Positions 5,257-5,720 of a stretch of 64,000 bases of DNA are shown here, in pieces. Position numbers and translations under genes: made by a program. Below the pieces are notes generated by a model, which ran no database searches, was not told the DNA's origin, and saw only the letters and a list, made by a program, of their open reading frames with translations. This DNA comes from Eledone cirrhosa (Eukaryota), in the NCBI GenBank assembly GCA_964016885.1, contig OZ024761.1:26908001-26972000 (forward strand), given 5' to 3'. Position 1 is the stretch's first letter; each line of letters begins with the position of its first letter.

Positions 5257-5720
5257 GATAACAAGTTATCGTTGTAGGTAATCCAGTTAGAGGTTGTGAG
5301 CACTCAACCTTGTGGATACTTTTAACGTACGGCTTTGTTTAACTAAACAAGATGCTTCCATAGTTAGGCAGCGAGTTCTCGGTAATTTCTATGCAGGTTA
5401 TACTTGGAGTAATAATAGTTAAAGGAAGAAGAGTAACATGGTTGGCTATACAATAAGGGGCTTTATTACAAGTACTGACAATTGTTTCGTTGATCAGGTG
5501 TGTCTAGAGTTCGCTAATCGCTTGAGGTTGCGTCAATCGATCTCCAATACATATATATGTGCTTTGATGTGTTGACCAGAGGTAAATAATGTATTGGAGA
5601 TCGAATGACGCAACCTCAAGCGATTAGCGAACTCTAGACACACCTGATCAACGAAACAATTGTCAGTACTTTAAATAAAACCCCTTATTGTACAGCCAAC
5701 CATGTTACTCTTCATTCTTT
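5255..5720. mobile_element. Penelope-pLTR-like element, family B, copy 1, with an inverted duplication of about 130 bp
   Basis: Arms 5421-5552 and 5589-5720 are inverted repeats. A paralog lies at 55314-55819. The element abuts (TA)n and contains a hammerhead motif. Confidence 0.8.
5559..5669 (+). ncRNA. Type I hammerhead ribozyme motif with a 64-nt helix II insertion (core degenerate in this copy)
   Basis: GTGCT-TTGATGT-GTTGACCAG-[64 nt]-CTGATCAAC-GAAA-C-AATT-G-TC-AGTAC. Helices I, II and III pair, the cleavage triplet is GUC, and the core has two changes from CUGAUGA. Confidence 0.75.

Follow-up and report, generated by a model that had tools for sequence, protein, structure and literature searches.

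A long, covarying helix II arm in the hammerhead motif of a Hydra-type Penelope-like element of Eledone cirrhosa

Two hammerhead-bearing stubs and their element

The window, a stretch of 64,000 nucleotides of the Eledone cirrhosa genome (assembly GCA_964016885.1, contig OZ024761.1, positions 26,908,001 to 26,972,000), harbours two copies of a type I hammerhead motif with a greatly extended helix II (Table 1). A first-pass annotation of the sequence had described both as 111-nt hammerheads carrying a 64-nt insertion, and this layout was confirmed. The copies are identical at 85 of 111 positions in a gap-free register, helix I, proximal helix II, GAAAC and the GUC and GUU sites all lie where they had been placed, and the 64-nt insertion is present between the proximal helix II strands of both. 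The 82-nt segment from A9 to G12 folds as a long hairpin (folding z -3.39 in copy 1 and -1.71 in copy 2). Both copies are the plus-strand arm of a head-to-head pair, with a minus-strand, 5′-truncated partner located just upstream. These inverted partners extend ~170 nt beyond the plus-strand copies and then run into (TA)n.

Table 1 Features of the two copies in the window
Feature	Position	Strand	Remarks
pLTR stub copy 1, subfamily A, short form	5550..5721	+	From ~14 nt before the core to the short 3′ end, ~57 nt past the cleavage site
Type I hammerhead motif, copy 1	5559..5669	+	Helix I 5559-5563/5665-5669; core 5564-5570
Remainder of copy 1 hammerhead	5653-5657 (GAAAC)	+	Palindromic helix III of 2-3 bp; predicted cleavage after C5664
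Core state, copy 1			C3>U is a lesion; A9U is the subfamily state
Extended helix II, copy 1	5571..5652	+	Stem IIa 5571-5579/5644-5652 closes the 64-nt insertion 5580-5643
Conserved arm module, copy 1	5591..5639	+	Stem IIb 5591-5603/5628-5639, with near-invariant GUA/UAGAC end
Inner part of arm module, copy 1	5609-5611/5620-5622 (stem IIc)	+	5x5 internal loop; 8-nt loop
Inverted partner, copy 1	5255..5552	-	5′-truncated within the arm; reaches the long 3′ end (~+225), then (TA)n
pLTR stub copy 2, subfamily B, short form	55612..55820	+	(TA)n at the short 3′ end
Type I hammerhead motif, copy 2	55655..55765	+	Core 55660-55666; GUU site; predicted cleavage after 55760
Core state, copy 2			Subfamily state U4C; here C>T at a CpG, plus G8>A
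64-nt insertion, copy 2	55676-55739	+	
Arm module, copy 2	55687..55735	+	Stems IIb and IIc
Inverted partner, copy 2	55314..55601	-	5′-truncated within the arm, with local rearrangement; reaches the long 3′ end, then (TA)n

The open reading frames of the window comprise only repeat-derived frames and a decayed LINE-like scrap, and no remnant of a Penelope-like element (PLE) ORF was found within the 64 kb. An Rfam scan of positions 5000-6000 yielded 71 matches, all below the gathering score and none to a hammerhead family; the miRNA-like matches among them stem from the inverted repeat. The (TA)n beside copy 1 contains a palindromic, GC-richer insertion (5075-5212) that belongs to a different repeat family and matches several other loci. 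A short hammerhead-like motif with intact core boxes is located at ~26290 (26230-26296, minus strand), and window positions 1-424 form a decayed tandem array of related sequence.

At a first look, copy 1 and copy 2 gave 2,670 and 2,603 candidate matches, respectively, in the 3.0 Gb host genome. A family-specific pattern for the 3′ half of the hammerhead matched 9,277 times (control, 28), and a long-arm pattern 6,801 times (control, 50); about one in ten of the first 100 of these 6,801 matches represents other families or chance. In longer copies of subfamilies A and B the hammerhead is preceded by a 3′ UTR of ~700-860 nt and, before it, by the same endonuclease end that closes the open frame described next. 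The young subfamily Y displays a stop-to-stop frame of 808 codons (794 aa from Met), flanked by two direct repeats ~3.5 kb apart, each with a long-armed hammerhead (7 of 20 loci: L126-L130, L135, L136). Its protein carries RWK, ADKT, RT YRDD, CNC linker, YIG, CxxC and CRH motifs. The Hydra-type motifs were read in P0067 and L061/L062, and the third linker Cys is Tyr in L128 and Cys in subfamily A. One ORF with a reverse transcriptase (RT) plus, at its C-terminus, a GIY-YIG endonuclease, domains assigned by motif reading, lies between the pseudo-LTRs (pLTRs), as in EN+ Penelope-like elements. The inverted 5′-truncated or partial tandem copies and the optional tail are further traits of that group, and 66 protein homologues share 30-39% identity. 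It is near certain from these sequence features that the two copies are decayed pLTR stubs of a Penelope-like element, apparently of the Hydra clade. A non-LTR retrozyme was considered and rejected, as the copies are dispersed stubs or inverted pairs running into a coding element and not short non-coding tandem repeats.

The Hydra clade is marked by RWK, DKT, a CxCX5C-type linker, CxxC and CxH motifs and by insertion into (TA)n (PMC8557442). In E. cirrhosa, (TA)n was found within 420 nt after 202 of 216 scored copies, 186 of them at two fixed ends. Pfam gave no significant match for four ORF fragments from decayed copies, so placement in this clade is made on motifs and should be read as probable. 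The protein motifs, the (TA)n targets, the inverted 5′-truncated partner, the hammerhead in the pLTR, the extra base on each side of helix II and a helix III of the ACA/UGU type are all shared with Hydra-clade elements such as Hydra-1_Obim and Penelope-2_NV (Craig et al. 2021, PMC8557442 and its File S2). However, in the published text on that clade loop 2 measures 3-10 nt, and metagenome relatives span 10-25 nt, compared to an A9-to-G12 span of 78-82 nt here. The unit is ~3.5 kb instead of generally <3 kb, a tail of ~165-170 nt instead of 30-40 nt separates the two 3′ ends, and the dominant cores are U4C or A9U, unlike the Hydra hammerheads published there (PMC8557442).

Fragments of another RT-endonuclease element, Penelope/Neptune-like by eye, adjoin family copies at three loci (L063:8259-8999, L065:6167-7347 and L052). 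Five near-identical copies of subfamily C (L111-L115), ~120-155 kb apart at 203.9-204.5 Mb on one contig, probably reflect segmental tandem duplication.

Core boxes and architecture of the arm

Subfamilies were defined with 259 distinct full copies from 300 loci, of which 236 fell into 10 clusters of at least 3 copies and 23 were set aside. The core counts given here come from top matches or pattern matches and describe a non-random sample. Subfamily A, to which copy 1 belongs, has the core CTGATGT (A9U) in 40 of 51 copies. Subfamily B, which includes copy 2, has CCGATGA (U4C) in 29 and CTGATGA in 7 of 39 copies, and subfamily Y12 has CCGAAGA in 17 of 18. The canonical core is found in 22 of 25 copies of subfamily E and 26 of 39 of D5. 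Subfamily C, small and canonical (33 exact motif matches), bridges A and B. Taken by subfamily, a canonical 5′ box is seen in C, E and the majority of D copies, A shows A9U, and B, Y and G show U4C; CUGAWGA occurs in 2,626 of the 6,801 long-arm genome matches. GAAAC and GUH are kept in all subfamilies. Non-canonical cores characterise the largest subfamilies.

These data change the reading of the cores in the window, which had been taken for complementary lesions of a canonical CTGATGA. U9 of copy 1 is the state of its subfamily, and U4C is the state of the subfamily to which copy 2 belongs. The copies differ from their own subfamily majorities at only 3 (copy 1) and 2 (copy 2) of 111 sites, and the earlier reconstruction therefore fused a private lesion with a subfamily state. 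Both copies do carry lesions beyond their subfamily core, and the canonical-looking U4 of copy 2 is most likely CpG decay of the subfamily CCG. The annotation had also named a consensus core other than CUGANGA as contrary to its proposal. Such a consensus is found in subfamilies A and B; canonical subfamilies exist nonetheless.

Three helices with an open helix I are present; the pairs of helices I and II covary and those of helix III are invariant. The predicted hammerhead fold lies within 1-4.4 kcal/mol of the minimum for 8 of 10 subfamily majorities and 7-8 kcal/mol above it in D5 and G. In place of the short loop 2 that contacts loop 1 or helix I stands the 64-nt arm. A mismatch at the base of helix II is normal in Hydra hammerheads (File S2 of PMC8557442). 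U4C and U10.1-U11.1 occur naturally, U4C with lower activity in vitro (PMC3088659), and a literature search found no natural A9U hammerhead.

Within the arm, a proximal stem of 8-9 bp leads through an asymmetric loop into a module whose length is fixed at 49 nt across all subfamilies. This module begins with a 12-bp stem, at the end of which stands the near-invariant GUA/UAGAC; a 5x5 loop follows, and then a 3-bp stem with an 8-nt loop. By eye, the 5x5 loop was also weighed as a kink-turn or box C/D element, but it is symmetric and does not retain tandem G-A, and this reading was rejected. On 19 real copies RNAalifold found stems IIb and IIc unaided, with 8 module pairs, of which 6 show two-sided changes. 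When the full structure is laid over the same copies, 90.2% of cells pair, compared to 26-39% with slid partners, and two-sided changes occur in 13 of 28 pairs overall and 7 of 15 in the arm module. The covariation first seen as two swaps between the window copies, C-G/U-A in helix I and G-C/A-U in an inner stem, reflects genuine differences between subfamilies.

A naive count over all column pairs was rejected as evidence, as 171 of 3,495 background pairs pass as well. Because relatedness inflates covariation counts, a tree-aware test was applied to 12 subfamily majorities (representing 223 of the 259 copies), with a tree built on the columns outside the arm and nulls in which the substitutions of each branch are dealt anew. 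Five pairs with double changes were found, against null means of 1.35 (P=0.004) and 0.76 (0/2000), three or four of these double changes falling on a single GC-to-AT branch. The paired fraction was 0.889, against 0.71 and 0.77 under the nulls (P=0.001). As a result of the GC-to-AT branch 11% of background column pairs look compensatory, and 5 of 6 variable structure pairs exceed this rate (binomial p ~1e-4). In eight later copies, read in fixed register, 90 of 120 cells pair (74 of 90 when two indel-bearing copies are omitted). The covariation claimed by the annotation thus extends beyond two copies to 12 subfamilies, with two-sided changes in excess of the tree-aware nulls.

Constraint on the module was assessed in 11 copies (52 non-independent pairs). 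Identity was 0.72 in the module, 0.50 at fourfold-degenerate sites, 0.56 in the upstream UTR (0.51 after shuffling) and 0.67 in the downstream 48 nt, a value lowered by one truncated copy. The downstream 5′ leader being about equally conserved, constraint is not special to the arm. The unaided stems and the identity above that of synonymous sites bear out the description of the insertion as a conserved folded arm.

One possible role for such an arm is to dock on helix I or the flanks, substitute for the loop 1-loop 2 contact and so rescue a weak core by tertiary acceleration. Weak cores are indeed common in this family, and distal contacts are thought to rescue U4C hammerheads of viroids (PMC3088659). 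However, conservation within the arm is lowest in the loop closest to the core (0.44-0.48), a search for covarying helices of at least 5 bp between the arm and the tail or flanks found none, and U4C is also dominant in one short-arm family. Acceleration by docking is therefore considered very improbable.

The arm represents a genuine and conserved variation on the structure of a known ribozyme, within a retrotransposon clade that is itself known; its function is putative. In the literature searched, which included PMC13725137, PMC7229834 and bioRxiv 10.64898/2026.07.22.740005, no PLE hammerhead was found to be described with a covarying helix II arm of ~80 nt; supplements beyond the searched text may show long variants. 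The longest loop 2 found in print, 28-35 nt, belongs to two plant PLEs (File S2, PMC8557442). These elements, PLE-X1_sMoe and PLE-X1_sTam, likewise combine a PLE hammerhead with an enlarged loop 2, but their loops have about half the length of the present arm and appear in that file as single examples without covariation analysis (PMC8557442). The minimal PLE hammerheads (Cervera and De la Pena 2014, PMC4209133) share with the present ones type I topology, location in the pLTR, a short helix I, a short palindromic helix III, a longer-than-canonical helix II and thousands of scattered solo copies and opposite-strand pairs. Unlike here, their helix II has 6-8 bp and a small loop, and the text available describes no multi-stem arm (PMC4209133).

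Large hammerhead insertions have been described for loops 1 or 3 (PMC2950038). In the discontinuous Clec2 hammerheads (Martick 2008, via PMC2950038) a large insertion similarly hides the ribozyme from pattern searches. That search, as summarised there, allowed insertions in loop 1 or 3 and concerned 3′ UTRs of mammalian mRNAs, whereas the present insertion lies in helix II of a retrotransposon. The annotation had expected the arm to evade standard hammerhead models. At the gathering score Rfam indeed reported nothing on four long-arm loci, but nothing either on the one short-arm locus scanned (L330), so the evasion stands and its cause goes beyond the arm alone. Descriptor searches restricted to short helix II loops would miss thousands of hammerheads in such a genome.

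Long and short arms in the host genome

Families with a short helix II (A9-to-G12 spans of 11 and 20 nt) account for 10,062 matches in the host genome. As they are equally abundant in the same genome, the arm is not generally needed. Spans of 45-75 nt gave 1,416 matches, among them at least two families of 57-63 nt as well as deleted copies and spurious matches. Several other host families carry arms of 78-94 nt with unrelated sequence. PLE-type families with unrelated arms of 57-94 nt were seen at L336, L337 and L355-L357 (90 nt), L350 (83 nt) and L351-L354, with further long-arm loci at L339/L340, L342/L349, L341, L368 and L374. The arm of L352 is a near-perfect 82-nt hairpin, and for L351 a branched fold is predicted.

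A covariance model built on the arm recovered all 8 new loci of the family; it picked up none of the other long-arm families (best E 2.2) and gave no match in 78 metagenome loci. A hammerhead was detectable in 44 of these 78 loci, all spanning 10-25 nt. A relaxed long-arm scan, which recovered 12 of 16 positive-control loci (one at another length), gave a single weak match in the metagenome set, inside an ORF. In a query-anchored protein tree of database homologues the family groups with the 90-nt-arm family (UFBoot 100), and their sister group holds further long-arm families plus the 20-nt family, with weak internal support. Both one gain with a loss and several gains would fit the origin of the arm.

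This distribution bears on the explanation that the arm has no job of its own. Helix II might be a permissive site where an insertion, fixed early in the host lineage, was selected only to fold on itself, which would keep the hammerhead and leader from misfolding. Spans of 11, 20, 57-63 and 76-94 nt coexist among the host families, the arms of different families have no detectable sequence in common, short-arm families thrive and simple foldability would select pairing changes like those observed. However, the module is fixed at 49 nt and retains invariant or near-invariant positions, some of them unpaired, while synonymous sites are near saturation. Moreover, among 29 short-gap copies of subfamilies A, B and C no arm-less subfamily has expanded. 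Tolerated expansion is rather unlikely in our judgement, though it deserves serious consideration; if correct, the arm would be a structural curiosity of a known element.

For the role of hammerheads in Penelope-like elements this lineage offers natural controls within one genome. Its helix II regions measure 11, 20, ~60 and 78-94 nt, its cores include canonical as well as U4C/A9U forms, and the ORF of one young subfamily is open, so cleavage and protein binding can be compared directly among co-resident families.

Copy ends and possible roles of the arm

The ends of genomic copies are strongly clustered. At the 3′ side, 216 copies were scored; the end lies 40-75 nt past the cleavage site in 113 and 195-250 nt past it in 73, with both ends present in every subfamily. 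At the 5′ side, the match to the subfamily breaks off within 20 nt before C3 in 103 of 219 copies and over the following 60 nt in 26. As no more than about a third of copies is lost across the ~75-nt arm, the drop just before the core is about six times steeper. The 5′-end peaks adjoin initiator-like words. Reading these peaks as start sites draws on genomic copy ends in a sample chosen for a whole core.

A model for replication can be proposed by analogy with PAc, a Poseidon element of Anolis, which has two internal RT start sites and whose hammerhead cleaves only with its protein, insertion being independent of cleavage (Frangieh et al. 2024, PMC11167929). Transcription would start 6-15 nt before the core, making the hammerhead and arm a 5′ leader. 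The two fixed 3′ ends match the internal RT starts of PAc, and reverse transcription may likewise begin internally, at two sites ~+59 and ~+225 past the cleavage site. The RT would often read through an uncleaved hammerhead to the 5′ end of the RNA, leaving stubs and inverted partners in (TA)n. A short palindromic helix III implies weak, dimer-dependent cleavage (PMC4209133; PMC6765202). The helix III of 2-3 bp, the mismatch at the base of helix II and the U4C/A9U cores may keep cleavage slow and dependent on dimers or protein. The copies suggest that many templates were uncleaved when reverse-transcribed, and very large subfamilies have spread with non-canonical cores via apparently uncleaved templates. 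Two fixed 3′ ends attributed to internal RT starts, an uncleaved RNA template and a protein-assisted hammerhead are common to PAc and the working model for the present family. PAc differs in belonging to another clade and in that its hammerhead overlaps the ORF start, with no long helix II arm in the description available, and the RT starts proposed here lie in the 5′ UTR (PMC11167929).

The weakest step of the model concerns the arm. Its fixed geometry and invariant bases may form a binding site, and the protein of each family would then recognise or fold its own RNA. As a whole, the account that this lineage-specific helix II arm of ~80 nt is a family-specific RNA handle for its own RT-endonuclease, on a ribozyme predicted to be slow, is put forward tentatively, as the favoured reading at slightly less than even odds. 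The other long arms are family-specific in sequence, as a recognition tag would be. On the other hand, short-arm families are as numerous, the unrelated 57-94-nt arms of other families also fit a site tolerant of expansion, and the motifs beside the proposed RT starts are located downstream of the arm and are in part shared with short-arm families. The protein-binding region of PAc has been mapped downstream, within the ORF (PMC11167929), and by analogy this too speaks against an arm as handle.

In an extended form of the handle account the arm would be a natural allosteric module that binds its own RT-endonuclease and gates self-cleavage, each co-resident family being switched by its cognate protein only. 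Such an arm would be the natural counterpart of engineered stem II aptazymes. This extension is regarded as unlikely.

Two further explanations place the constraint in functions other than protein binding. Drosophila Penelope has an internal promoter and an intron within its first ~120 transcribed bases (PMC2377424). The invariant bases could accordingly form an internal Pol II promoter at ~25-95 nt past the start site, with pairing secondary. The proposed start just 5′ of helix I, beside initiator-like words, would suit a promoter, and in Penelope the promoter lies in the first ~50 transcribed bases (PMC2377424). However, compensatory changes indicate selection at the RNA level, a word resembling a downstream promoter (by eye) stands at the expected distance in some subfamilies only, and the distance from proposed start to arm varies by several bases among subfamilies. 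A promoter overlapping the arm thus appears improbable.

A hidden intron was also considered, in which the near-invariant GUA would be a splice donor and the acceptor either the UAG located 47 nt further on or a YAG that lies 42 nt ahead of the ATG, removing part or half of the hammerhead. The intron of Penelope is 75 nt long, begins 46 nt past the start site (PMC2377424) and overlaps the hammerhead with its 3′ end (PMC4209133); here GUA lies ~35-41 nt past the proposed start, and subfamilies A and Y have a YAG ahead of the ATG. Against splicing, the donor match is poor and its invariant U at +5 pairs in the stem, none of 29 short-gap genomic copies shows GT-AG excision, and the YAG is not kept across all subfamilies or in short-arm families. 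Moreover, an intron of 47 nt would be very short. Four contig sets, their kind unrecorded, contained an inversion joint only, no skipped part, and are uninformative for expression or splicing. A hidden intron of this kind seems a very slim prospect.

Short sequence words recur near the ends discussed above. A GTTGAGC-like word occurs twice in the 5′ UTR of long- and short-arm families (L128:1480-1640, L330:1540-1740 and L357), its second occurrence 20-30 nt before the ATG, and in the long-arm family both fixed 3′ ends are followed by a CTCC word. Both words are candidate signals for RT start or protein binding.
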